DNA from: a virus
Taxonomy: Duplodnaviria > Heunggongvirae > Uroviricota > Caudoviricetes
Direction: 5' to 3' (one strand)
DNA length: 12,837 bases
Virus record (IMG/VR): IMGVR_UViG_643692022_000004
Shown: piece by piece, positions 985-12,798 of the stretch
Layout: every line of letters starts with the position of its first letter
Numbering within the stretch: position 1 is the first letter of the stretch
Made by a program: the position numbers and the translations under genes
The notes under the pieces: generated by a model
Database searches by the model: none
Told to the model about the DNA's origin: nothing
What the model saw: the letters and a program-made list of their open reading frames with translations, nothing else

Positions 985-1044
985 GCGCCATGCAGGCTTT
1001 CAGGACTTCATCGGATGGCTCTGGTAATCACCGATGGAGAATTT

Positions 1045-1066
1045 TGGTGGGCTGGCGGAGTTTGAA
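1045..1066. other. Distal attachment site (attL-like): degenerate direct repeat of the ssrA 3' end
   Basis: tggtgggctggcggagtttgaa versus the ssrA 3' terminus tggtggagctggcgggagttgaacc at 12436-12460 (shared blocks tggtgg / gctggcgg / agtt / gaa), in the same orientation and again adjacent to a copy of the terminator hairpin. Confidence 0.45.
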
Positions 1067-1119
1067 TAAATATTGTATTGCTTTGATTTTTAATGATTTT
1101 ATTTAATTCAGTTTTTATG

Positions 1120-1141
1120 CGTATACCTAATCGTATACCAA
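1120..1141. promoter_or_regulatory. Putative integrase arm-type binding sites (alpha-proximal arm)
   Basis: cgtatacct-aat-cgtataccaa; the same two motifs recur four times, in both orientations, at 12272-12323 next to int and the ssrA core. Confidence 0.35.
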
Positions 1142-1200
1142 TGGCTGTAAGTTAATGTGAAATGAAAGCGTATTTTTATTTGGATTGATGCTATATCGTA

Positions 1201-1500
1201 CAGGAAAAAATTTTTTTTCGAAAGAACTGTTCACACTGTTCACCCTTTGATTTTCTCCTTTTATTTCATAGTGATAGGTGGTGAATAATGGGTGAAGGGT
1301 GAACATTCGATTCTTCACCTCCGGCATTCTGCCGGTGTGACTCATACCGGTGATTAATCCCCCGTACTGAAAATCGCACAGGGAGAAAAAAGTTTTTTTT
1401 GATTTGATTGTTCACACTGTTCACCTTTCATTTTTCTCTTTTAATTTCAGTGTGATAACGGGTGAACATACGGTGAAGGGTGAACAGTGGATTGTTCACC
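1201..1500. repeat. crr-like cis replication region: two ~120-bp direct repeats carrying TGTTCACC-type octamer iterons
   Basis: Unit 1 (~1201-1320) and unit 2 (~1381-1500) each begin with an A-run/T-run and contain tgttcaca, tgttcacc and inverted ggtgaaca copies (e.g. 1228-1244, 1298-1305, 1409-1425, 1461-1468, 1479-1486, 1493-1500). TGTTCACC is the recalled binding octamer of the P4 alpha C-terminal domain. Confidence 0.7.
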
Positions 1501-1518
1501 TTCGGGGAATTCAGGGAT

Positions 1519-1543
1519 AAAAAAAGACCGGCAGATGCCGGTC
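1519..1543 (-). terminator. Rho-independent terminator of the leftward operon, just after alpha
   Basis: On the minus strand a 7-bp stem GACCGGC/GCCGGTC (1526-1532 / 1537-1543) with a 4-nt loop is followed by a 7-T run (1519-1525), 8 nt after the alpha stop codon at 1551-1553. Confidence 0.55.
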
Positions 1544-1550
1544 AGGTGGG

Positions 1551-3884
1551 TCAGGCTGTTGCAGGGTCGTCACATTTTGGCAGCCAGTCGCCGTAGCTTT
1601 CCTCTTTCAGTGTCAGGTTGGTCTGTATCCCCTGTTTGGTATGGCGCTTCTCGTAATTCAGTCCGTATTCCTTCAGCATCACCGGCAGCCCCAGCCCGAA
1701 CATTTTCAGACTGAGTACATTCCGGTAGCCGTTTGCCTCCATGTAGGCCAGATAGGCGTGATAGAGGTATTTACGGTAATTACGCGGGATGATACTGGCG
1801 TTCCCCATATACATGCCGCTGGTCTGCGGCAGGGTTTCCAGATAGCCGATAAAATCAAACGTCGGGTCGGCATCCCGTTTGATGTTCAGTGCCTCGTCTG
1901 AGTTCTGCTGGGACTGAAGCAGTGACCGGGCGAGCATCGGGTCGCTGAACTTCTGCATCAGGTGACGCACGATGACCGCCAGCTCGCGGGTGATTTTGTC
2001 CTTAAGCTGCGGGTCGCGCTCCTGCGGGGCTATCTGTTCCGGGAAGTGAATAATCACCCGCCGGCGTGACACGCCGCCGCTGCGGTCGGTGAAGCGCATC
2101 GGGTTATTGTTCACGGCCAGAATCACCGCCGGGATGTGCGTGGAGTACGCATCCCGGTATTTCGGGTCAACGGACACTGCATCGCCGCCGGTGATGGCCT
2201 TGAGTCCGGCTCCGTCGCCGCTCCATTTTTCCTGGTCCGGCAGGCGTATCAGTGAGAAGCCAGTTAACGCGGCACGTTCACGCGGGGATTCCAGCGTCTC
2301 AATGGTGGCCGACGTGGCGTTATCCTCACCGGCCAGCAGGGTGGCTATTTCGGCCATGATACTTTTGCCGCTGCCGCCGGGACCGGTCACCTCCAGAAAG
2401 AGCTGCCAGTCGTAGCGGTTTGCCAGCACCATAAACAGTGCGGCCAGAATCACGTCGCGTTTTTCCGCACGACCACCGGCAGCACGGTCAAGCCAGCGCC
2501 AGAACGCGGGAGCGTGGGTTTCCAGCGTTTCACCGTCCACCGGCGGGGTGAAATCCACATCACACAGGGTACGCATCCAGTGTGACGGACTGTGCGGGTG
2601 GAACGTACCGTTCTGCGTGTCGAGCACGCCGTTACGAAAGCCAATCAGGCGGCGGGAGGGGGCTTCCTGCTGCGGAATAATCAGCTTCAGGGTGTCCACC
2701 ACGGAGGCCACCTTCCCGGAGGAGAATGGCGCGCGCAGACGCTGAAACAGCCCGGCCACATCCCGGGCAAAGTCCTGTGGCGGCAGCACCTTCCAGACAC
2801 CATTTTCATAGCGGGACAGAAGCTGGCCGTTGGCATCGACCGCGAGCGCCTCGCCGTAATGCTCATAGATACGCATGGCCTTTTCGCTGGTACTCATGGC
2901 GGAAAACTCCGCTTCGCTCATGGTGTCGAACGGGCTTTCAGCCGGTGGCCGGATGGCATCATAAATGGCCTTACGGGTGGCCTCCCCGCCGTACTGCGTG
3001 AAGGCATCATTCCAGTCACCGAAGACCGGCGGCAGGGCAACAACACCTTCACACGCATCTGCGGCTGCGGCGGCTTTTTTCTGGCCGTCACCGCTGAGGT
3101 CACGGTCAGCGGCAAGGACAATCTGACAGGCGGGGTGCTTCTGCCGGGCAAGGCTGGCCAGAGAAAGGAGGTTCACGGAAGAAAGCGCCACCATCACCGT
3201 TTCACCGGTCAGGTGATGCACGGTAAGTGCGGTCGCGTATCCCTCCGCTATCCACAGACGTTTTCCGGCCTGATTCTGTCCTTCAAGGATGTGACAGGTG
3301 CCCCTGACCTGTCCGCCTTTCAGGGTGCGCTTACGGCCGTCAGCACTGATTAACTGAAGGTTAACCAGTTCGCCGCGGTCGTCATACAGTGGCACCACAA
3401 GGTCACCGGCGCGCCAGCTCACGCCACCGGCTCTGTGTGTGCCGGTCAGCATCCGGCATTCCCGGCCGGGAAAGCCCTTGCGGGTCAGGTAGGCGTTACC
3501 GGTTCCGGGACGGGTTTTCGCCATCAGGGTTTGTGCCAGTGCGGCGGCGTTCTTCCGGGCAGCGTCTGTTTCAGCAACAGCGGCGGTCGTCACTGCCGGG
3601 TCAGCCGGGGGCAGGCTGCCGGTCACGGCAGCCACCTTTGCGGCCGCATCGGACGGGGAAACACCAAACACCTTTTCAACCAGTTTCAGGCCGTCACCGG
3701 CACCACACTGATTGCAGTACCAGGTGCCGCGCCCCTCCCTGTCATCAAAACGGAAGCGGTCACTCCCGCCACAGACCGGACAGGGCTGATGACGGTTCTT
3801 CAGCACCTGAATCCCCAGCGCCGGGAGGATACGCGGCCAGTGGCCGAGTGCATGGCTGACGGTGGCGGTTACGTTCATTTTCAT
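1551..3884 (-). CDS. alpha: P4 alpha-type primase-helicase (777 aa)
   Basis: ATG at 3884 with AAGGAG RBS. N-terminal zinc-binding primase motif CPVCGGSDRFRFDDREGRGTWYCNQCG, Walker A VTGPGGSGKS of a D5/SF3-type helicase, and length matching the recalled 777 aa of P4 alpha. Flanked by its cognate octamer iterons. Confidence 0.95.
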   Translation of the reverse strand: MKMNVTATVSHALGHWPRILPALGIQVLKNRHQPCPVCGGSDRFRFDDREGRGTWYCNQCGAGDGLKLVEKVFGVSPSDAAAKVAAVTGSLPPADPAVTTAAVAETDAARKNAAALAQTLMAKTRPGTGNAYLTRKGFPGRECRMLTGTHRAGGVSWRAGDLVVPLYDDRGELVNLQLISADGRKRTLKGGQVRGTCHILEGQNQAGKRLWIAEGYATALTVHHLTGETVMVALSSVNLLSLASLARQKHPACQIVLAADRDLSGDGQKKAAAAADACEGVVALPPVFGDWNDAFTQYGGEATRKAIYDAIRPPAESPFDTMSEAEFSAMSTSEKAMRIYEHYGEALAVDANGQLLSRYENGVWKVLPPQDFARDVAGLFQRLRAPFSSGKVASVVDTLKLIIPQQEAPSRRLIGFRNGVLDTQNGTFHPHSPSHWMRTLCDVDFTPPVDGETLETHAPAFWRWLDRAAGGRAEKRDVILAALFMVLANRYDWQLFLEVTGPGGSGKSIMAEIATLLAGEDNATSATIETLESPRERAALTGFSLIRLPDQEKWSGDGAGLKAITGGDAVSVDPKYRDAYSTHIPAVILAVNNNPMRFTDRSGGVSRRRVIIHFPEQIAPQERDPQLKDKITRELAVIVRHLMQKFSDPMLARSLLQSQQNSDEALNIKRDADPTFDFIGYLETLPQTSGMYMGNASIIPRNYRKYLYHAYLAYMEANGYRNVLSLKMFGLGLPVMLKEYGLNYEKRHTKQGIQTNLTLKEESYGDWLPKCDDPATA

Positions 3885-3898
3885 GGTGTTGTTCTCCT

Positions 3899-4219
3899 TC
3901 AGTGCAGTACCGGCGCTTTTATGTGACGGGCACAGAGTTCATCCATCACAACCAGCCCGAGAAAGGACAGCGACGGCGCGGCCTTCAGGGGGCCGGATTC
4001 CATTAAATCTTCCAGCAGGGCACAGGCTATCTGACGCCCTTTTTCCTCACCGTGCTGGTGCAGATAAAAGCCTTCCAGCTCAGCGGCGATGGCCGCCTCC
4101 AGTGACTCAAGGGTGAGATGCGGGTAGCGGTGCTGACGTTCGCACACGGTCAGCCAGGCACAGGCGACAGCGCGACGGTAAAGGGCAGCGCGTAAGACGG
4201 GCGGTAAGGGGGTTTTCAT
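3899..4219 (-). CDS. P4 orf106-like hypothetical protein (106 aa)
   Basis: ORF of the length and position of P4 orf106, between orf151 and alpha; its stop (3899-3901) overlaps the alpha RBS. Function unknown. Confidence 0.7.
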
Positions 4220-4354
4220 TTGTTTTCCTCCCTGTGACAGATGACTGCATTCCGTGCCGGTTGCATTAACTGATAAGGCATATCTGCGTCTCCTGAAGAC
4301 GTGCGTATCCCTGCGCGAATACGCACATTTAATTTTTCGGGTGTCGTTTTTTAA

Positions 4355-4810
4355 TTACAGATAATTGCGGTAACTGTTATCCGGGGTGATTTCCGGGTCA
4401 GGCTCCGTGCGGGGAATTTCCCGCCATTCCCGCGCCACCGGTGCCGCCCGGCTGACCGGAACAGGGTCCTGCGGGTAAATATCCAGATATTTCTCCCGCC
4501 ATTTCTGTAATTCCGGGTCTCCGGCCATTTCTTTCAGTACCGCATGCCGGTTTACGGGGCTGCGTTTAAACAGGTCAGGACGGTCACAGGTAAATTCCCG
4601 CAGAAAACGCCCCAGCGGGATGTCTGTGGTGCGCCCGTCAGCGAGGATACGCACAAGGATACTGAATTTACGGCGGTACGGGTTCCAGACAATGTCCGGG
4701 CAGCGGTACGGCATTTCCCACGGAATACCGTCTTCCAGAATGCCGACCACGGCCACATCGGGAAAACCGGCAGAACGGTAAATCTCACCAGGCTGGGGAA
4801 AATCAAACAT
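4355..4810 (-). CDS. P4 orf151-like hypothetical protein (151 aa)
   Basis: ORF of the length and position of P4 orf151; its ATG (4810-4808) overlaps the epsilon stop (4803-4805), suggesting translational coupling. Confidence 0.7.
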   Translation of the reverse strand: MFDFPQPGEIYRSAGFPDVAVVGILEDGIPWEMPYRCPDIVWNPYRRKFSILVRILADGRTTDIPLGRFLREFTCDRPDLFKRSPVNRHAVLKEMAGDPELQKWREKYLDIYPQDPVPVSRAAPVAREWREIPRTEPDPEITPDNSYRNYL

Positions 4811-5090
4811 GCGTCCTGTCTCCCCGGTCTTTCTGCTGGGCGAGAAAATCGCGGCACAGGCCTTTGGCTTTCAGCTCATTCAGCACAAAATCAATATCTT
4901 CATTCAGGTAGCTGAAAATATGCGGAATGTAGAGCTGATGCAGGCCGGAGAGTTCACGGTGAATCAAATCACCCCCAACAAACTGGGATACGGCGCTGGC
5001 GCGGTTGAGCTTATGGTAAGCCTCAATGCTGAGGTGTTCACGGGCGTCATGACGCGCTGAGACGGTCTGAGGGGCTTTTTTATTACGCAC
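4803..5090 (-). CDS. epsilon: Epsilon-like protein (95 aa; P4 anti-repressor that derepresses the helper prophage)
   Basis: Position immediately downstream of the immunity region and upstream of orf151/alpha, as in P4. The start appears to be GTG (5090-5088) preceded by a G-rich RBS. Identity rests on synteny and size, not on a recalled sequence. Confidence 0.6.
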
Positions 5091-5283
5091 GGGACACCCC
5101 CATCACTGGCAGACGGGCAGCAAGGGAGAGCACATAGTCACGGACAAGGGAACGGCGGGCGCTGCGTTCATCACCGGCGACGGTGCGAAGCATGCAGATA
5201 CGGGGATGACGGTCTGCGCGACGGACAGCCGCAAACACAAAGACAAATTCAGGGTGTGAAGGGGTAAGGGTTGTAGCCATGAT

Positions 5284-5402
5284 GGCAGCCTCCGTTAGAT
5301 AGCAGGTTACGCTATCGCCGGAGTTTCCACGCTCGATGGCGATAGCCCAGACGGGGGTGGAAATACCGGCTCTAACGGATACCGGCCAGCCCGGAGGCTG
5401 CC
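5284..5402 (-). ncRNA. Candidate CI-like immunity RNA (structured RNA in the P4 immunity region)
   Basis: Perfect 11-bp long-range inverted repeat ggcagcctccg (5284-5294) / cggaggctgcc (5392-5402) enclosing a perfect 9-bp hairpin gctatcgcc (5311-5319) / ggcgatagc (5338-5346). The locus lies between vis and epsilon where P4 encodes the CI RNA. Exact ends are uncertain. Confidence 0.3.
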
Positions 5403-5528
5403 CCGCCTGAGCTACCATTGACTCTGCGGCATAATGAGCGGACGCGGGCAGGATGCACGGAGTGCCATCTGCTCGACTGACCACACACCACACCATAATC
5501 TGGCGCTCTGTGGCGTTGATTGCGACAC

Positions 5529-5550
5529 AAAAAAAGACGCATGGCGCGTC
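5529..5550 (-). terminator. Candidate attenuator/terminator hairpin in the leader between the early promoter and the CI-like RNA
   Basis: On the minus strand the stem GACGC/GCGTC (5546-5550 / 5536-5540) with loop GCCAT is followed by a 7-T run (5529-5535). The stem is short, so the call is weak. Confidence 0.35.
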
Positions 5551-5613
5551 ATATGTCGCCGTTAGATTGCTCGGGTTTCCACGCCCGGCTGCCGATTTTG
5601 CGACAGCGGAAAA

Positions 5614-5643
5614 ACTATATCCGCAAATGCCGGAAAAAGGCAA
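5614..5643 (-). promoter_or_regulatory. Candidate sigma70 promoter (PLE-like) downstream of vis
   Basis: On the minus strand TTGCCT (5643-5638), an 18-bp spacer, then TATAGT (5619-5614), directed toward the immunity region and epsilon. Hexamer match by eye only. Confidence 0.25.
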
Positions 5644-5678
5644 GCCAGAAAAAGGGAGTTTTTGCAGAGCGGGCATCA

Positions 5679-5945
5679 TCATGCGTCGTACCCCCGTTTG
5701 CGTCCGGCAATGCGCCCGGCCATCCATGCGGTGACTTCAGAGTGCAGCCAGGCCACATTTTTACCGCCAAGACTCACCTGCGGCGGAAATTCCCCCTTAC
5801 GGATGAGTTCATAGATGGTCGAGCGTGACAGGCCGCACAGGTGCATCACTTCCGGAAGACGTAAAAAACGCTCCTGTGTGATGTCCGGCAGCGGCATCAG
5901 TGGCGTCACAGGGGCGGGAGACGGGGAAGAAAAAACAGCTTGCAT
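5679..5945 (-). CDS. vis: Vis-like excisionase/transcriptional regulator (88 aa; AlpA/Xis-type helix-turn-helix)
   Basis: 88-aa ORF with a GAGG RBS. Contains the AlpA/Vis-type motif [45 protein letters not shown]. Same size and position as P4 orf88 (vis) between the late promoter region and the immunity region. Confidence 0.8.
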
Positions 5946-6090
5946 CGGGCTACCTCGTTAATGTCCATACAGCACCGGATAAGTCCGTCCGGCTTCGGGT
6001 AGCGCTTTATTTTGTGAATATTTTCAGCAGACGCAACAGGGGGGATTTGTTCCGGCAGCCTTACAATGCTTGTGTATTTTTTGTTCATCT

Positions 6091-6120
6091 CCACTTAAAG
6101 TCATTTAAAGCCACTTAAAG
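6091..6120. promoter_or_regulatory. Three phased 10-bp direct repeats upstream of vis (candidate Vis/PLL operator)
   Basis: ccacttaaag / tcatttaaag / ccacttaaag are exactly contiguous with 10-bp periodicity, about 150 bp upstream of the vis start codon. Confidence 0.3.
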
Positions 6121-6224
6121 CAATTCGTAATTTTTATAGTGAAATACAAATCGTTTTTTCTTATTCATTCCCGGCGAATTAATAAAAACAAACAGTAATA
6201 AACAGCACAAAAAGCCCATCAACG

Positions 6225-6328
6225 GGTGAACAGTGGTGAACAGACGGTGAACAGTCATTACTGCGATTGTTCACCCTTTAACTTACTGTATTACTTATCT
6301 TTTTTCTTATGGTGAACAGAGGTGAACA
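6225..6328. repeat. ori-like replication origin: cluster of six GGTGAACA/TGTTCACC octamer iterons
   Basis: ggtgaaca at 6225-6232, 6235-6242, 6246-6253, 6311-6318, 6321-6328 and tgttcacc at 6268-6275, followed by an A/T-rich stretch (6331-6350). Same octamer as in crr, and located between vis and sid as in P4. Confidence 0.65.
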
Positions 6329-6408
6329 GTAAAATATAAAAAAAATAAACAGTAAGCCGTTTTTTCCAGCGACCTTTTCCTGGCTTGCCGGTGTGAGGAT
6401 GAGTCTCC

Positions 6409-6426
6409 TGTGTCAGGGCTGGCACA
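6409..6426 (+). promoter_or_regulatory. Psid-type late promoter activator site (TGT-N12-ACA dyad for Delta/Ogr-family activators)
   Basis: TGTgtcagggctggcACA, centred roughly 80 bp upstream of the sid ATG, consistent with the recalled P2/P4 late-promoter architecture (dyad centred near -55). Confidence 0.5.
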
Positions 6427-6498
6427 TCTGCAATGCGTCGTGTTGTTGTCCGGTGTACGTCACAATTTTCTCAACCTGAAGTGACGAGGAGCCGGAAA

Positions 6499-7233
6499 AT
6501 GTCTGACAACACCATCCCTGAATATCTGCAACCCGCACTGGCACAACTGGAAAAGGCCAGAGCCGCCCACCTTGAGAACGCCCGACTGATGGATGAGACC
6601 GTCACGGCCATTGAACGGGCAGAGCAGGAAAAAAATGCGCTGGCGCAGGCCGACGGAAACGACGCTGACGACTGGCGCACGGCCTTTCGTGCAGCCGGTG
6701 GTGTCCTGAGCGACGAGCTGAAACAGCGCCACATTGAGCGCGTGGCACGCCGGGAGCTGGTACAGGAATATGACAATCTGGCCGTGGTGCTGAATTTCGA
6801 ACGTGAACGCCTGAAAGGGGCGTGTGACAGCACGGCCACCGCCTACCGGAAGGCACATCATCACCTTCTGAGTCTGTATGCAGAGCATGAGCTGGAACAC
6901 GCCCTGAATGAAACCTGTGAGGCGCTTGTCCGGGCAATGCATCTGAGCATTCTGGTACAGGAAAATCCGCTCGCCAACACCACCGGCCATCAGGGCTACG
7001 TCGCACCGGAAAAGGCTGTCATGCAGCAGGTGAAATCATCGCTGGAACAGAAAATTAAACAGATGCAAATCAGCCTCACCGGCGAGCCGGTTCTCCGGCT
7101 GACCGGACTGTCAGCGGCAACACTTCCTCACATGGATTATGAGGTGGCAGGCACACCGGCACAGCGCAAGGTGTGGCAGGACAAAATAGACCAGCAGGGA
7201 GCAGTGCTTAAGGCCAGAGGACTGCTGTCATGA
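6499..7233 (+). CDS. sid: Sid-like capsid size determination (external scaffold) protein (244 aa)
   Basis: ATG at 6499 preceded by AGGAG (6486-6490); the track ORF begins 66 nt further upstream but lacks an RBS. The product starts MSDNTIPEYL and is 244 aa, the recalled length of P4 Sid. First gene of the sid-delta-psu operon. Confidence 0.85.
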   Translation: MSDNTIPEYLQPALAQLEKARAAHLENARLMDETVTAIERAEQEKNALAQADGNDADDWRTAFRAAGGVLSDELKQRHIERVARRELVQEYDNLAVVLNFERERLKGACDSTATAYRKAHHHLLSLYAEHELEHALNETCEALVRAMHLSILVQENPLANTTGHQGYVAPEKAVMQQVKSSLEQKIKQMQISLTGEPVLRLTGLSAATLPHMDYEVAGTPAQRKVWQDKIDQQGAVLKARGLLS

Positions 7234-7730
7234 TTTACTGCCCGTCGTGTGGACATGTTGCTCACACCCGCCGCGCACATTTCATGGACGATGGCACCAA
7301 GATAATGATTGCACAGTGCCGGAATATTTATTGCTCTGCGACATTTGAAGCGAGTGAAAGCTTTTTCTCTGACAGTAAAGATTCAGGAATGGAATACATT
7401 TCAGGCAAACAGAGATACCGCGATTCACTGACGTCAGCCTCCGGCAGTATGAAACGCCCGAAAAGAATGCTTGTTACCGGATATTGTTGTCGGAGATGTA
7501 AAGGCCTTGCACTGTCAAGAACATCGCGGCGTCTGTCTCAGGAAGTCACCGAGCGTTTTTATGTGTGCACGGATCCGGGCTGTGGTCTGGTGTTTAAAAC
7601 GCTTCAGACCATCAACCGCTTCATTGTCCGCCCGGTCACGCCGGACGAACTGGCAGAAATCCTGCATGAAAAACAGGAACTGCCGCCAGTACGCTTAAAA
7701 ACACAATCATATTCGCTGCGTCTGGAATGA
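7230..7730 (+). CDS. delta: Delta-like late transcriptional activator (166 aa, tandem Ogr-type zinc-finger domains)
   Basis: Start overlaps the sid stop (ATGA at 7230-7233). Two Cys4 modules: CPSCGH...CRNIYC and CRRCKG...CTDPGC. Length equals the recalled 166 aa of P4 Delta. Confidence 0.9.
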   Translation: MIYCPSCGHVAHTRRAHFMDDGTKIMIAQCRNIYCSATFEASESFFSDSKDSGMEYISGKQRYRDSLTSASGSMKRPKRMLVTGYCCRRCKGLALSRTSRRLSQEVTERFYVCTDPGCGLVFKTLQTINRFIVRPVTPDELAEILHEKQELPPVRLKTQSYSLRLE

Positions 7731-7803
7731 GGGCTGCCGGTTAACACCGGCCGTCGCCGCACACCGTATTTTTATTCTTCACCATGATGAGAAAGAGATA
7801 ACG

Positions 7804-8376
7804 ATGGAAAGCACAGCCTTACAGCAGGCCTTTGACACCTGTCAGAATAACAAAGCAGCATGGCTGCAACGCAAAAATGAGCTGGCTGCGGCCGAACAGG
7901 AATATCTGCGGCTTCTGTCCGGGGAAGGCAGAAACGTCAGTCGCCTGGACGAATTACGCAATATTATCGAAGTCAGAAAATGGCAGGTGAATCAGGCTGC
8001 CGGTCGTTATATTCGTTCGCATGAAGCCGTTCAGCACATCAGCATCCGCGACCGGCTGAATGATTTTATGCAGCAGCACGGCACAGCACTGGCGGCCACA
8101 CTGGCACCGGAGCTGATGGGCTACAGTGAGCTGACGGCCATTGCCCGAAACTGTGCCATACAGCGTGCCACAGATGCCCTGCGTGAAGCCCTTCTGTCCT
8201 GGCTTGCGAAGGGGGAAAAAATTAATTATTCCGCACAGGATAGCGACATTTTAACGACCATCGGATTCAGGCCTGACGCGGCTTCGGTGGATGACAGCCG
8301 TGAAAAATTCACTCCTGCGCAGAACATGATTTTTTCGCGTAAAAGTGCGCAACTGGCATCACATCAGTCTGTGTAA
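7804..8376 (+). CDS. psu: Psu-like polarity suppression / capsid decoration protein (190 aa)
   Basis: 190-aa ORF starting MESTALQQAFDTCQNN, matching my recollection of P4 Psu in sequence start and length; last gene before cos. Confidence 0.9.
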   Translation: MESTALQQAFDTCQNNKAAWLQRKNELAAAEQEYLRLLSGEGRNVSRLDELRNIIEVRKWQVNQAAGRYIRSHEAVQHISIRDRLNDFMQQHGTALAATLAPELMGYSELTAIARNCAIQRATDALREALLSWLAKGEKINYSAQDSDILTTIGFRPDAASVDDSREKFTPAQNMIFSRKSAQLASHQSV

Positions 8377-8411
8377 AACTCCCCGAAAATCCGCCCGTTT
8401 TTACTGAAAAA

Positions 8412-8450
8412 AGCCATGCATCGATAAGGTGCATGGCTTTGCATGCGTTT
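8412..8450 (+). terminator. Candidate terminator of the late operon
   Basis: 8-bp stem AGCCATGC/GCATGGCT (8412-8419 / 8431-8438) followed by a T-containing tail (ttgcatgcgtttt), about 35 nt after the psu stop. Confidence 0.4.
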
Positions 8451-8540
8451 TCCTGCCTCATTTTCTGCAAACCGCGCCATTCCCGGCGCGGTCTGAGCGT
8501 GTCAGTGCAACTGCATTAAAACCGCCCCGCAAAGCGGGCG

Positions 8541-8559
8541 GGCGAGGCGGGGAAAGCAC
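8541..8559. other. cos site (P2/P4-type 19-nt cohesive end)
   Basis: GGCGAGGCGGGGAAAGCAC matches the P2/P4 cohesive-end sequence as I recall it; preceded by a GC-rich hairpin CCGCCCCGC-aaa-GCGGGCGG (8522-8543). Confidence 0.65.
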
Positions 8560-8575
8560 TGCGCGCTTAAGTATA

Positions 8576-11026
8576 TTATTGTTTTGCACTTAAAATATTA
8601 TCAACAACTCGTTTCACACTTTCGAAAGATGACTCTCCTGTTTTAAAAGATTCGTTCATGTCAAAATAACTAGGTTTATTTACAAAACTACTCCAAGCAT
8701 TTGACAGGTAATCTTTGAATGCAATGGAGCGTTTATATCGATCCTCAATATTGAATGACTCACATGAAGCTCGCATATTATTGACTACTTCAGGATTAAA
8801 TATAGGAGTGTCAAATACCATTGCATCAAGATAGGCGAAATCACTTATCCATCGCTTGAGATGATACAAACCAATAGATGTGATTCTAAATTTCGTTGGC
8901 ATTTCTCCTATTAAACCTGTTTCGTCCTCTTCAAATGTAAACCTCTGTGAGGTCTCTATTAATTTTTTGTTTGTCGTTCTTCTTAGCGCATTTTCAGTCT
9001 GCTCAGGAATAAAACCAAGGCTTTGCATTTCATCTATAATGGACTTGGTTAGACAGAATCCATCCCGGTCCTGAAGCTCTTTTTTTTCTGATAATAGCGC
9101 CATTATTAATGGTACTAAAAAGTGTTCTGATATATCTGCAAAAGAAACATCAAAAATATTCATGGCAAGAGATGTGTTTGGATCAAAGTGTGAATATTCA
9201 CCAAGTAAAGCTTGTTTAGAAAATTCATGTACAGGAATTATATATCTACCTTCTTCTTCGTAAGTTCGAATTATTTTATCCGCTTCAACATTTGGGCTGC
9301 CTATAAAACCAGTAATAAAGCTAAGCGCTTGTCTTACATTGCCTCCCGTAATGTTTTCAATAAACTCTCCTAGTGATTTATTTTTTCTTAGAGATTGAAG
9401 CAATACTCTGATAAATGAAGAAAGATTGTCTATATGGATTCTAACAAATTCGGCATGTTCAAGAGGTATCTTTCCTTCAGACATTTCGAGAGCAAACTGA
9501 AGTCGTTTATCAAGAACTTGATCTATCCTTGGTGGTGCAATTGTAAAGACCTTGTGGGGATAAGCAGTTAATGCACCTGATGCTTTTGATTTAAAGAATG
9601 TCTGAGGTCTGACAGATATAAATACTAAAGCATTCCAATCTTTTGCTAACTCCTGAGAAATAACAAATGCTCGCTGTTGCGTTTCGAAATCTCGTTGATC
9701 AGCATTATCTAGACAAATAATTACTTGCTTTTTAGTTTGTTTTGATAAATGAGCGATTGAGTTTTTTAAATGTTCATCTTTAGCATCTAATTTTTCCGCC
9801 AACATCTCAAGTTGTTTTTCCTCATATCGTTCTCTATTTGAATCTCGTAAACTCCCCCAGATTCCTTTTGAAAACCTTTGAATATCTCTTGAATATACGC
9901 CTTTAACAAATTTCATTTCGGTTATATCACAGGAGTATTTATTGTCTAGTTGTTGCTCTATCTCATTTAATATAAATTTTTGAAGATTATTAGCTAATGT
10001 TGCTTTAGAGCCTAAATCTATATATAAATAAATTGCCTCTTTAAATTCTTTGAATGCACTTGAATAAATTAAATTTTTTACAAATGACGTTTTACCAACA
10101 CCAACATCACCAATTAATACAATTGGACGCTTTGATAGAGCCTCGGCCATAATACTTGGATCTAAAGTTTGCTCTTTACGATCAGGTTTAACAGAAGTTA
10201 TATGTGGAGATAATTCATTGTCACTAAATAGAGCAGCATATCTGGCTTGAAGCATTTCTTTACTTAGCAAAGCATATTTTGAAAGGGCACCACTTTCGCA
10301 GTAGCATTTTTGGTAAAAAATCTCTTCAATTTCATTGCTTTCAAGAGCATCTTGAATTATTAATTCTGATATTTGTCTTAATGAGGTCTGTATATCACTA
10401 GCATAGCGTATTTTAGGATACATTGATAAATAGGTTGATAATTTATTTGGAATACCACTTATGTCAGAGGTAAGATACTTAATTAAACGTTGTTCTTTCA
10501 CACCGTAATATGAAAGCATATTCCATGCTAAAGAAAAGTTCCGTAATAAAGAATCCAAACTGTCAAAAACTAAAGCTTTTCCCTCTAAAGGCGAACAGCC
10601 ATTTTGAGTGCTTGCAATAAATGATATAAATTGATGTCCATTAGTGGCTATTGCAATTGGTGTTCCTCGTGATGAACAATATTTTTGTACCTGTATAATT
10701 GCGTCTTTTAAATCGTCATTTGATCTTAAGAGAGTTGGTATGTCGATTATGTTCTTATTTGATAAACCTGCTGGTATTTCAAAAGTCCGGCCTTCTCTTT
10801 TCGCTTCAACAATAACTTGCCGTGGCTTTCCTAATTCATAATCTGTAAAAGTATGATCATGATAGTTTTCAACTTCTATTTGATCATCAGGCCAGCTAAG
10901 AACGTCAATAATTATTTTGTTTATTATATGATGCCTAGTCTGGGCTTCATTTCTTATCTTGGCGCTGTCACTATATTCGTTTACTAATTCTCTTAATAAA
11001 TTTTCGGCTTGTATCATTGTAACCAT
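8576..11026 (-). CDS. Candidate anti-phage defence protein: N-terminal PD-(D/E)xK nuclease (HsdR-N/Mrr-like) fused to a P-loop NTPase with a C-terminal domain of unknown function (816 aa)
   Basis: Uninterrupted 816-codon ORF, ATG at 11026 with GGAGAG RBS 7 nt upstream. Residues ~26-76: NEAQTRHHIINKII...IEVE...DYEL...VIVEAKREG, the E/D/ExK pattern of HsdR-N/Mrr-type nucleases. Walker A GDVGVGKTS (~306-314), extended Walker B VIICLDNADQ (~435-444), and GGNVRQAL (~561-568) resembling an AAA+/STAND sensor motif. No SF2 helicase motifs. Sits in the P4 psu/cos-int slot; strongly AT-rich against a GC-rich backbone. Confidence 0.85.
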   Translation of the reverse strand: MVTMIQAENLLRELVNEYSDSAKIRNEAQTRHHIINKIIIDVLSWPDDQIEVENYHDHTFTDYELGKPRQVIVEAKREGRTFEIPAGLSNKNIIDIPTLLRSNDDLKDAIIQVQKYCSSRGTPIAIATNGHQFISFIASTQNGCSPLEGKALVFDSLDSLLRNFSLAWNMLSYYGVKEQRLIKYLTSDISGIPNKLSTYLSMYPKIRYASDIQTSLRQISELIIQDALESNEIEEIFYQKCYCESGALSKYALLSKEMLQARYAALFSDNELSPHITSVKPDRKEQTLDPSIMAEALSKRPIVLIGDVGVGKTSFVKNLIYSSAFKEFKEAIYLYIDLGSKATLANNLQKFILNEIEQQLDNKYSCDITEMKFVKGVYSRDIQRFSKGIWGSLRDSNRERYEEKQLEMLAEKLDAKDEHLKNSIAHLSKQTKKQVIICLDNADQRDFETQQRAFVISQELAKDWNALVFISVRPQTFFKSKASGALTAYPHKVFTIAPPRIDQVLDKRLQFALEMSEGKIPLEHAEFVRIHIDNLSSFIRVLLQSLRKNKSLGEFIENITGGNVRQALSFITGFIGSPNVEADKIIRTYEEEGRYIIPVHEFSKQALLGEYSHFDPNTSLAMNIFDVSFADISEHFLVPLIMALLSEKKELQDRDGFCLTKSIIDEMQSLGFIPEQTENALRRTTNKKLIETSQRFTFEEDETGLIGEMPTKFRITSIGLYHLKRWISDFAYLDAMVFDTPIFNPEVVNNMRASCESFNIEDRYKRSIAFKDYLSNAWSSFVNKPSYFDMNESFKTGESSFESVKRVVDNILSAKQ

Positions 11027-11049
11027 CGAAAACTCTCCAAATGAAAAAA

Positions 11050-12249
11050 TTAAAAGGATAAAGATTTATGAACAAAAGAACTCCACCAGTTCATTAAATT
11101 CTTCCTTTGTTCTAAGTAAGTAGAACGGTTATAAGCTTTTCTGACTTCATTCTTATCGCTATGAGCTAAGGCTGATTCTATTACATCAGCGTTAAATTCG
11201 GCTTCATTCATTGCAGTGCTGGCAATAGAACGTAAACCATGAGCAACGAGTTTTCCACCATATCCTATCCTTTTTAAAGCGGCATTTGCAGTTTGGCTAT
11301 TCATGGGTTTTTGTGGATCATTTCTACTTGGGAAAACATACTCACGATGAGCACTAATAGTTTTCATAACTTCAAGAATATCTAAAGCCTTAGGTGATAA
11401 AGGTACAATATGTTCGCGCTTAGCTTTCATCCTTTCAGCAGGAATTCTCCAGAGTTTTGCATCAAAATCGATCTCCTTCCATTGAGTGCCTGAAGCCTCT
11501 GAAGGGCGCACAAGGGTGAGTAGTTGCCATTCAATCAGACAACGGGTCTGCACAGAAAGATTTGACATAGATAAAGAATACATAAGTTTCGGTAATTCTT
11601 CAGGTCGTAGTGTTGGCATGTTTTTCTTTTTAGGTTTCTCAAATGCCATACCAATACCTGATGCAGGATTAGCGTCAATTAAGCCAGTATTAACGGCATA
11701 AATCATAATTTCATTAATACGTTGTACCAAACGACGAACAGTTTCAAGTGCTCCACGAGCTTTAATTGGTTCTAAGGTTTCAATTAATGTACGAGCTTTT
11801 ATTTTCTGAACAGGAATTTCACCGATAGTAGGGAAAATATCTCTCTCTAAGGAGCGCCATACATCCTTTGCGTAATCAGGTGTTACGTTGTTTCTTTTTA
11901 TGGCAAACCATTTTGAGGCAACGTTTGAAAAAATACTATCTTCCGCAATCTGTTGCTGTACAGTGACTTGCTCACTGTATATCTGTGGATCAATACCTCG
12001 GGCCAGCAAGGAAAGATACTCAGCACGAGTGTTTCTGGCTTCAGCCAGAGAAAGGGCAGGGAAAGACCCTAAACCAATCATGGTTCGTTGTTTTGTTACT
12101 GGTTTCTGGTATCGGAAACGCCACAGCTTCCTACCGTTCGTTTTTACGAGTAGAAAAAGTCCATTACCATCATGTAGCGTTAGATCCTTTGCAGTTGCTT
12201 TAGCCCGTGATAGTTCAGTGTTAGTAAGAGGGCGTGTTGTACGTGACAC
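11050..12249 (-). CDS. int: Tyrosine integrase (P4-family, 399 aa), ssrA-specific
   Basis: N-terminus typical of P4-family integrases (...RPLTNTELSRAKA...LHDGNGLFLLVKTNGRKLWRFRY...), C-terminal catalytic region with HGLR and a tyrosine in KAYNRSTY. Apparent GTG start at 12249 with a GAGGT RBS. Directly adjacent to the ssrA 3' end. Confidence 0.9.
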   Translation of the reverse strand: MSRTTRPLTNTELSRAKATAKDLTLHDGNGLFLLVKTNGRKLWRFRYQKPVTKQRTMIGLGSFPALSLAEARNTRAEYLSLLARGIDPQIYSEQVTVQQQIAEDSIFSNVASKWFAIKRNNVTPDYAKDVWRSLERDIFPTIGEIPVQKIKARTLIETLEPIKARGALETVRRLVQRINEIMIYAVNTGLIDANPASGIGMAFEKPKKKNMPTLRPEELPKLMYSLSMSNLSVQTRCLIEWQLLTLVRPSEASGTQWKEIDFDAKLWRIPAERMKAKREHIVPLSPKALDILEVMKTISAHREYVFPSRNDPQKPMNSQTANAALKRIGYGGKLVAHGLRSIASTAMNEAEFNADVIESALAHSDKNEVRKAYNRSTYLEQRKNLMNWWSSFVHKSLSF

Positions 12250-12271
12250 GATTATCCTACCTCAGAGAGAA

Positions 12272-12323
12272 TTGGTATACGCTTTTAGGTATACATCTTA
12301 CCGTATACCTAAACGTATACCAA
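12272..12323. promoter_or_regulatory. Cluster of four arm-type integrase-binding-like repeats between int and the att core
   Basis: ttggtatacg (12272-12281), aggtatac (12287-12294), cgtatacct (12302-12310), cgtataccaa (12314-12323): two motifs in inverted then direct orientation, and the same pair recurs at 1120-1141. Overlaps the expected int promoter. Confidence 0.4.
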
Positions 12324-12367
12324 TAATCACTGGATTTAGCGGGATATTCTCGGACAACTGCGGACAC

Positions 12368-12386
12368 AAAAAAGCCCACAGGGCTT
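12368..12386 (-). terminator. Rho-independent terminator downstream of ssrA, supplied by the element
   Basis: On the minus strand AGCCC-tgt-GGGCT is followed by a 6-T run (12368-12373), about 50 nt beyond the tmRNA 3' CCA end. Confidence 0.5.
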
Positions 12387-12435
12387 GTGCCATGCGGGCT
12401 TTCAGGATTTTTCCGGACATATCCGGAAGAGCAAG

Positions 12436-12798
12436 TGGTGGAGCTGGCGGGAGTTGAACCCGCGTCCGAAATTCCTACATCCTCGGTACTACATGCTTAG
12501 TCAGTCTTTACATTCGCTTGCCAGCTGCGGACGGACACGCCACTAACAAACTAGCCTGATTAAGTTTTAACGCTTCAACCCCAGGCAGGGCTTCCACGCG
12601 ATCTCTTTTGGGTTTGACCTCTCTTGATCCCCGTCCTAAGAGCGGAGGCTAGGGAGAGAGGGCTCTAAGCAGGTTATTAAGCTGCTAAAGCGTAGTTTTC
12701 GTCGTTTGCGACTATTTTTTGCGGCTTTTTACGAGGCCAACCGCCCCTCGGCATGCACCTTGGGTTTCGCAAATCCCGTCGAATCCAGAATCAGCCCC
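12436..12798 (-). ncRNA. ssrA: tmRNA (transfer-messenger RNA)
   Basis: Reverse complement begins GGGGCTGATTCTGGATTCGACGGG and ends ...GGTTCAACTCCCGCCAGCTCCACCA; contains the tag reading frame GCAAACGACGAAAACTACGCTTTAGCAGCTTAA (ANDENYALAA). 363 nt, matching E. coli ssrA as recalled. Confidence 0.95.

Follow-up and report, generated by a model that had tools for sequence, protein, structure and literature searches.

Integrase and hotspot cargo of a P4-type satellite at ssrA probably belong to one AT-rich arc between cos and att, mostly inherited as a single block

INTRODUCTION

Does the abrupt fall in G+C content at the cohesive-end site (cos) of a P4-type satellite mark the edge of a unit that is exchanged with its integrase, or only the edge of a variable defence gene? 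The question is raised by a 12,837-nucleotide (nt) stretch of Caudoviricetes DNA (IMG/VR record IMGVR_UViG_643692022_000004; the whole stretch is called the window here), which contains a P4-type satellite prophage (~1044–12435) whose insertion point is the ssrA 3′ end, with 11.4 kb between its attachment (att) cores. A GC-rich backbone that includes the primase-helicase gene alpha and the sid-delta-psu operon runs up to cos, and beyond cos lie a single gene of 816 amino acids (aa), referred to as the cargo, and the integrase gene int. A defence hotspot next to cos, between psu/cos and int, has been described in P4 satellites (Rousset et al. 2022, PMC9122126; Moura de Sousa et al. 2026, PMC13586616). 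An initial annotation, made from the sequence of the window, had proposed that int and cargo were acquired together from a lower-GC source. From the comparisons described here we consider it likely that cos and the att core divide the element into two arcs, and that the AT-rich arc has a history of its own and is usually inherited as one block.

RESULTS

G+C content steps down at cos

Sliding-window G+C content was 0.53–0.65 across most of 1500–8550 and 0.29–0.37 across 8551–11250, climbing to 0.41–0.45 over the 5′ half of int and to 0.45–0.51 past ~12150–12300. In a two-segment likelihood scan of 6450–12250 the best break was at 8566 (log-likelihood gain 95.3, with 8563–8572 almost as good), and the largest gain among 1000 shuffles of 50-nt blocks was 21.9. 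The step that had been noticed by eye at ~8565 is therefore real, and it does fall within a few bases of the cos core and the cargo stop codon, 7 nt past the former and 10 nt short of the latter. By feature, G+C content (with that of third codon positions, GC3) was 0.608 for alpha (GC3 0.704), 0.571 for sid, 0.491 for delta, 0.527 for psu and 0.553 for the stretch 8377–8575, and it was 0.333 (GC3 0.219) for the cargo and 0.399 (GC3 0.285) for int. The right edge of the AT-rich stretch, at the arm sites, was also as first described. Calling the backbone well above half G+C is right for alpha and sid and wrong for delta and psu (0.49–0.53).

Two parts of the backbone are AT-rich as well. One is 1045–1550, comprising the P′ arm and crr (the cis-required replication region); the other is a dip at 5900–6450 (0.36–0.41) that aligns with the P4 alpA–sid segment carrying the annotated replication origin. 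Given this dip within the backbone, low G+C content by itself is no marker of foreign DNA in this element.

Satellites at ssrA share a backbone and differ beyond cos

We searched for sibling elements in 5426 complete E. coli genomes, the set that also served for the census of int alleles below. Many E. coli elements at ssrA share the backbone, with homology that runs from 1043–1050 to 8565–8575 at 98.0–98.4% identity, breaks there, and picks up again at 11072–11083, just within the 3′ end of int. Identity over int was 74–82% between siblings and the window and 78–87% among the siblings themselves, compared with 98–99% for alpha and psu. The divergence covers the entire int gene; among siblings attL is 85–96% and ssrA 100% identical. 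Synonymous divergence (dS) was 0.9–2.6 for int, with a ratio of nonsynonymous to synonymous divergence (dN/dS) of 0.05–0.11, and 0.05–0.06 for alpha. Diversifying selection as the source of the int divergence was ruled out by this low dN/dS and by dS near saturation, and the int alleles are old, functional and under purifying selection, not fast-evolving.

On backbones that are 98–99% identical we found at least eight unrelated cargos, including SIR2+ATPase, NACHT and DUF262+HEPN+Dcm systems, so that the content of the cos/psu–int locus varies between near-identical satellites, as in the published hotspot. The int alleles on a second backbone subtype (alpha 71% identical in nucleotides; L006 and L018) all fall into just one of the two clades that E. 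coli int forms, which means that the int and backbone trees disagree. From these trees and from the dS values, int and the backbone genes do not share one history, in line with what the initial annotation had supposed.

Modules are near-identical where backbones differ

Nine pairs of elements carrying the same module, representing five module types, were 99.78–100% identical from cos to int, while identity in the neighbouring 5 kb of backbone was only 93.6–98.7% (Fisher p between 4e-12 and 9e-61); their P arms were 100% identical. Between the window and its near-identical relative L001 there are 3 differences in 3689 nt of module (99.92% identity) and 118 in 7522 nt of backbone (98.43%). In six of nine counted same-module pairs, a count from which pairs with L005 and pairs with an internal insertion were excluded, the last single-nucleotide polymorphism (SNP) of the backbone lay 12–34 nt before the cos core. 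Backbone differences were scattered over all 7.3 kb, and the longest SNP-free run was 389–1148 nt. Patchy gene conversion that leaves a backbone tract linked to the module was rejected on the shortness of these runs and on the lack of any fall in divergence near cos in three of four module types; in the SIR2 pairs, 178–795 nt of backbone are linked to the module. Host flanks past ssrA differ by 0–2.1% in same-module pairs. With near-identical modules amid differing backbones and host flanks, identity forms an island in the module that ends at cos on one side and at att on the other.

In E. coli, a single further lineage has the window cargo and int allele, L005 (9913–14683, E. coli CH4799). 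It is a remnant that keeps a partial delta, psu, cos, cargo and int, with unrelated genes and an IS3 element in place of the remaining backbone.

int alleles are linked to their cargos

We next consider how often an int allele, taken at ≥99% identity, is accompanied by its cognate cargo. The window allele occurs in 2 of the 5426 genomes, both with the complete cognate cargo. The allele linked to SIR2+ATPase was found in 12 genomes (12/12 with cognate cargo, and no allele at 90–99%), the NACHT allele in 25 (25/25; 327 others match at 80–90%, in int only), and the L003 allele in five, all with the cognate cargo, with three more genomes at 98.7% that carry another cargo. For the L013 allele, 18 of 20 genomes had the complete cognate cargo; one of the two partial matches was looked at (H238), and its int is truncated by IS5, not exchanged for another int. 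No cargo was found intact away from its own int in this census of five int alleles.

The arc beyond cos is replaced relative to canonical P4

By blastn, window 1205–8540 corresponds to P4 (NC_001609 / X51522) 4291–11624 at 98.0% nucleotide identity, from the first base of crr, which is annotated in P4 at 4291–4590, to the cos end. Over this stretch crr, alpha, orf106, orf151, epsilon, the cI/ash region, alpA, ori, sid, delta, psu and cos are colinear in the two elements. P4 1–4290, with gop, beta, cII, int and attP, is without nucleotide match in the window, and the two integrases share 36% protein identity. P4 has the same two-arc pattern of base composition, 0.554 from crr to cos versus 0.395 from cos to attP. 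Its AT-rich arc differs in content: P4 has gop, beta, cII, a 440-aa leuX-targeting integrase and its own attP arms, whereas the window has one 816-aa gene, a 399-aa integrase and att sites matching ssrA. The stretch replaced relative to P4 takes in both att arms, with its boundary at crr, window base 1205. A change of integration specificity, which the initial annotation had ascribed to the acquisition, can thus be upheld against P4 (leuX to ssrA); it does not apply among the siblings, all of which sit at ssrA with conserved core and arm sites.

The order ssrA-int-cargo is conserved in other genera

Outside E. coli, the nearest cargo homologues (80–84% aa identity) were found in Klebsiella quasipneumoniae, the Enterobacter cloacae complex, Pectobacterium atrosepticum and Serratia marcescens. 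These enterobacterial orthologues came from a protein search and contig look-ups; a peptide-pattern scan of contigs was too specific and gave four distant marine loci. In all four genera the loci are ordered smpB-ssrA-int-cargo, with the same short spacer and an ssrA-type int, and each gives one colinear 3.9-kb alignment to the window at 71–73% nucleotide identity. The backbones at these loci have diverged widely (alpha 59% aa identity in Serratia, 84–85% in Enterobacter) or decayed. Loci from Klebsiella quasipneumoniae and the Enterobacter cloacae complex (L024–L029) combine an intact cargo orthologue with a neighbouring int that is truncated or split and with little or nothing of the P4 backbone, which gives them the look of stranded int-cargo remnants kept at ssrA. 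Some Enterobacter loci have a different complete P4-like element beside the cargo orthologue.

Such loci raise the possibility that the module is the resident at ssrA and that incoming P4 genomes replace the att-to-cos arc, with the same junctions and the reverse direction of exchange. Retention of int and cargo at ssrA with the backbone partial or gone, in Klebsiella, Enterobacter and Pectobacterium and likewise in E. coli CH4799, would fit this scenario, as would the far greater uniformity of the backbones than of the modules, expected after a recent spread. A search with the whole window gave a median of four matching places per E. coli genome, and these count as donors only if other P4-type backbones are among them. 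However, host flanks around one and the same module can differ by as much as 2.1% and can carry different ratA alleles, which indicates that modules move between hosts too, and the direction of transfer is not given by the data. We regard a resident module with incoming backbones as unlikely to be the main explanation.

The orthologues also bear on the origin of the low G+C content. Cargo orthologues have a G+C content of 0.33–0.41 in hosts that themselves vary widely in G+C content, from marine gammaproteobacteria to Serratia, where they form local AT-rich islands; all sibling cargos are at 0.31–0.35, and int is at 0.40–0.50 across lineages. Inferring a low-GC donor from base composition was rejected, since the cargo is AT-rich in every host checked (marine gammaproteobacteria and the four genera), and the "lower-GC source" of the initial annotation is not supported; P4 has the same two-arc pattern. 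AT-richness is better taken as a trait of the cargo family and the int lineage than as the fingerprint of a donor. One could go further and suppose that the step is purely compositional, arising without exchange from selection for AT-richness in defence genes and int (e.g. for silencing or regulation). The constant composition of the orthologues in every host, the low G+C content of sibling cargos regardless of their identity and the P4 pattern all agree with that supposition. They undercut the low-GC donor, not the exchange, which sequence comparison and homology breakpoints reveal directly, and a purely compositional step is barely credible.

Limits of the linkage

A number of observations weigh against treating int and cargo as a fixed unit. 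The window-type module is found in one E. coli lineage only (two complete genomes, in one of which it belongs to a decayed remnant). In LD39-1 and two other genomes, an int that is 97.7–98.7% like the L003 allele adjoins an unrelated cargo. When the LD39-1 locus (L034, 3225–6106) is set beside L003 (9033–11872), no relation is seen between the cargo proteins (561 and 545 aa), both cargo genes run 4 nt into the int stop codon, and sequence similarity changes over ~36 nt inside the int 3′ end; this is a genuine cargo-only swap, and to that extent the unit is leaky. A diverged SIR2 module (76% nucleotide identity) adjoins an int of the other clade. The window int is itself a mosaic: its 5′ half (nt 1 to ~530) is 83–94% identical to the int of L002 and L009, alleles linked to cargos unrelated to that of the window, and its 3′ 670 nt are ~70–80% identical to every allele examined, a pattern that points to past recombination within this gene. 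A neighbour-joining tree of integrase proteins places the window int with E. coli alleles and not with the Pectobacterium and Serratia integrases that adjoin cargo orthologues. At the level of the literature, the similarity of defence genes correlated with that of each core gene at a Spearman coefficient of at most 0.2 in a global analysis (PMC13586616). Finally, the two routes by which such arcs could be exchanged, set out in the Discussion, would predict identical junctions.

Because the window int groups with E. coli alleles, strict co-phylogeny of int and cargo fails at depth; it is contradicted by the tree and by a sliding-window comparison of int. The last ~130 nt of int alone hint at co-phylogeny (72% identity to Klebsiella versus 60–68% to L002 and L009). 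The proposal that int and cargo travel together consequently holds at short range and in their conserved order across genera, and not as a strictly shared phylogeny. Likewise, the foreign unit of the initial annotation survives as an arc with its own history that is co-inherited (in 2/2 genomes, nine pairs and four genera), and not as an indivisible one, given the mosaic int and the cargo-only swap.

The same exceptions could be taken to favour the conventional hotspot, in which exchange is confined to the cargo, from cos up to the int stop codon, and int is a vertically inherited core gene whose lower G+C content is incidental. The literature places the hotspot between psu/cos and int (PMC9122126, PMC13586616), the swap between L003 and L034 is one clear case of it, with its junction 36 nt inside int, and sibling homology does return at 11072–11083, just inside the int 3′ end. 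Yet the homology that returns is merely 74–82%, against 98% in the backbone, and int dS is 15–50 times that of alpha. In addition, P4 has the backbone in common with the window and an int only 36% identical, same-module pairs are near-identical through int and cargo despite their backbone differences, and the window int allele was seen with another cargo in none of the 5426 genomes. For this element, exchange of the cargo alone is already contradicted by how int and backbone diverge; we judge it quite improbable, and favour the block of int and cargo with an occasional leak.

Feature map of the element

The coordinates of the element are collected in Table 1. The P4-like core gene set (int, psu, delta, sid, alpA, ash/epsilon, alpha) is present in P4 order, as judged from Pfam matches (alpha domains, Psu, Ogr_Delta, Phage_ASH and integrase), colinearity with P4 and the RefSeq annotation of the near-identical L001, together with a P2-type cos and an att-to-att genome size in the 10–12 kb range. 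The element abuts the ssrA 3′ end and has a duplicated core at its far end, which assigns it to the ssrA-targeting lineage: the attR core TGGTGG-GCTGGCGGAGTTTGAA matches TGGTGGAGCTGGCGGGAGTTGAA at 12436. The ssrA gene was identified by ARAGORN and is annotated by RefSeq in relatives. Arm-type repeats (CGTATACC...) lie towards both ends of the element, at 1120–1142 and 12273–12324. The alpha product has the Pfam domains Zn_Ribbon_Prim, Toprim_3, D5_N, DUF5906 and Pox_D5, and its gene is 98–99% identical to those of siblings. The mechanically called open reading frame for sid (6433–7233) encodes 266 aa and is longer than sid of P4 and the RefSeq models of relatives, at 244 aa (735 nt). Translation probably starts at the internal ATG near 6499.

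Table 1. Positions of satellite features and of the integration target in the window
Feature	Position	Strand	Description	Comparison or remark
attR core	1044–1066		Imperfect copy of the ssrA 3′ end; left end of the satellite	Sibling homology begins at 1043–1050
P′ arm of att	1067–1204		Arm-type repeats CGTATACCTAATCGTATACCAAT at 1120–1142	Common to ssrA siblings, not in P4
crr (cis-required replication region)	1204–1505		Two 121-nt direct repeats	P4 homology opens here (base 1205)
alpha primase-helicase	1551–3884	−	777 aa, GC 0.61	Backbone
Ash-family protein	5083–5727	−		Pfam
sid-delta-psu helper-exploitation operon	6433–8376	+	Backbone	98% identity to P4
Delta	7230–7730			Pfam Ogr_Delta
Psu	7804–8376			Pfam Psu
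cos core	8541–8559		GGCGAGGCGGGGAAAGCAC; 19-nt cohesive end as in P2/P4	Same as the P4 record ends; left junction of the variable arc
Hotspot cargo	8576–11026	−	Single 816-aa gene, GC 0.333	Stop codon 8576–8578
Tyrosine integrase int	11050–12249	−	399 aa, GC 0.399	ssrA-specific lineage
P arm of att	12250–12435		Arm-type repeats 12273–12324	Module side of the att core
ssrA (tmRNA), integration target	12436–12798	−	3′ end bears the attL core	ARAGORN

Integrase and cargo proteins

The integrase has the architecture of a tyrosine recombinase, with Pfam domains Arm-DNA-bind_3 (PF13356), Phage_int_M (PF22022) and Phage_integrase (PF00589), a match to NCBIfam PRK09692 (583 bits), and the motifs VRPSE, HGLRS and RKAYNRS, which we assigned by eye as the catalytic R, HxxR and Y. 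The cargo is predicted to combine an N-terminal HsdR-N-like PD-(D/E)xK nuclease, an ORC/Cdc6/TnsC-like AAA+ ATPase and a winged helix. Invariant among its homologues are D62, E64 and E74-x-K76, the Walker A motif G306-D-V-G-V-G-K-T313, and D440-x-x-D443. In an AlphaFold2 model built from 40 sequences (mean predicted local distance difference test score, pLDDT, 77.5), the best Foldseek matches were ORC4, Cdc6 and Orc1 (E ~3e-5), followed by weaker matches to NRC4, Dark, ZAR1 and EfAvs5 (STAND). Sequence searches for the family gave only mad8 in PADLOC (E 2.5e-4) and nothing significant in NCBIfam or a sequence search of the PDB.

Assignment of the cargo to the Avs/STAND antiviral NTPases was rejected on two grounds. 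It matched no PADLOC Avs profile and no Pfam NACHT or NB-ARC profile (AAA_22 at threshold only), and no C-terminal TPR-like sensor was seen in the model, where that region is occupied by the predicted winged-helix and short helical domains. Unlike the Avs proteins, it is much shorter and is without the TPR-like sensor. KAP (PF07693) gave no match to the window cargo; PF07693 is precomputed for homologue P0103, and some sources call relatives "KAP NTPase". The cargo is likely a single-protein nuclease coupled to a DNA-binding AAA+ switch, and its domain architecture suggests an anti-phage role. Its features fit the description of the "Reve" P4 system (PMC13586616), a single gene with PF13401, a KAP P-loop by HHpred and an ORC motor module as top Foldseek match, the likeness being one of description. 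The P4 gene described in this similar way gave protection (PMC13586616).

Other features of sibling elements

A second integrase gene lies just past the satellite attR in several siblings (L001 106–1335, L007 1378–2562, L022 583–1812, L023 584–1813), from which we conclude that elements are stacked in tandem at ssrA. These integrases share 49–50% protein identity with the satellite integrase, and two of them are 87% identical to each other. In L020 (1–6900, E. coli ST2747) the backbone is partially duplicated in tandem, with two alpha genes and two DUF5375...alpA sets, several of them frameshifted, upstream of a single sid-delta-psu-cos-NACHT-int set; this duplication is a visible product of recombination between satellite backbones. 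The IS21-family element ISEc12 lies inside alpha in L008 (3069–5371), L013 (3181–5483) and also hits H24–H28, in elements that otherwise look intact. Such satellites are probably unable to replicate, with cargo and int kept.

DISCUSSION

The comparisons directly document the boundaries, the discordant divergence, the linkage of int and cargo, and the ssrA-int-cargo order across genera. To account for them, we propose that one arc consists of att core, P′ arm, crr, alpha, sid-delta-psu and cos, GC-rich and essentially canonical P4, and the other (8567 to ~12435) of cos, cargo, int, P arm and att core, AT-rich and combining the defence hotspot with the integrase. Relative to P4, the stretch from cos to crr was swapped, gop/beta/cII and a leuX-type int/attP giving way to a nuclease-ATPase gene and an ssrA-type int/attP. 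Among siblings at ssrA, backbones have been shuffled between int-cargo modules.

Such an exchange would need two crossovers, one at or near cos and one at or near att. The position of int, between a non-homologous cargo and att, and its divergence, too great for efficient recombination, would make int travel with the cargo. By a first route, homologous recombination in the shared backbone would reach the edges of homology (cos and att), leaving cargo and int clonal and linked; other P4-type backbones could serve as partners, if they are among the four median matching places per genome. By a second route, co-resident genomes would join at their cos ends, which are identical, or by attP x attP recombination mediated by Int, and resolution at the other site or cos-to-cos packaging would then yield backbone A with module B, with junctions exactly at cos and the att core. 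That no linkage persists beside cos in several independent module types would be expected under the second route, and repeated events of the first would give the same.

Much of this framework has already been published: the hotspot in 2022, the discordant history of the integrase in 2021 and the rapid swapping of defence genes in 2026. Our observations resemble those of the hotspot papers in the variable locus by cos, the unrelated AT-rich systems and satellites that are otherwise near-identical. In those papers (PMC9122126, PMC13586616) int counts as a core gene at the flank of the hotspot or is left out when the core phylogeny is built, and little linkage is reported between defence genes and any core gene, whereas in the ssrA family studied here the int allele is almost wholly linked to the cargo at short range. 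This near-complete linkage sits uneasily with the weak global correlations of PMC13586616, which were computed over all pairs, with int left out of the core tree. The history of int was found to be unrelated to that of psu, sid and delta (rho 0.01–0.16) by Moura de Sousa & Rocha (2021, PMC8628076), who suggest frequent integrase exchange tied to diversification at cos. The int tree and dS values presented here agree with such a discordant history; the difference is that int and cargo are not described in PMC8628076 as one co-inherited arc between cos and the att core. Rousset et al. (PMC9122126) speculated that cos ends are recombination substrates, and the recombination processes "still need to be elucidated" (PMC13586616). 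What goes somewhat beyond these papers is a base-by-base delimitation of the exchanged unit, from cos to the att core, and an int-cargo linkage that amounts to a modest refinement.

Many of the anti-phage systems of enterobacteria are carried by P4-like satellites, which rank among their main carriers, and the fast turnover of their hotspot is left explicitly unresolved in the literature. A clean example of an exchanged unit that extends from near cos to the att core, usually with its integrase, limits the mechanism to one cos junction and one att junction. Alleles of int can be used as markers of cargo type, and analyses that fix int as a flank or drop it from the core may miss the linkage. 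For annotation, low G+C content is not evidence for a particular donor. The predicted nuclease-AAA+ cargo has been kept beside ssrA-type integrases in five genera or more, and merits testing. More tentatively, as an idea we hold with less than even confidence, the P4 genome in general may consist of two reassorting arcs set by cos (terminase) and attP (integrase), with hotspot turnover mainly a matter of whole-arc reassortment (cargo, int and P arm as one) between co-resident satellites, and gene insertion at a fixed locus playing a minor part; this would proceed by cos-end joining or cos-to-cos packaging combined with an Int-mediated or homology-edge crossover at att. If true, two-arc reassortment would supply the recombination mechanism left open by the 2022 and 2026 papers, and int alleles would be long-lived "haplotype tags" of their cargos, like housekeeping genes that hitch-hike with polymorphic antigen loci.

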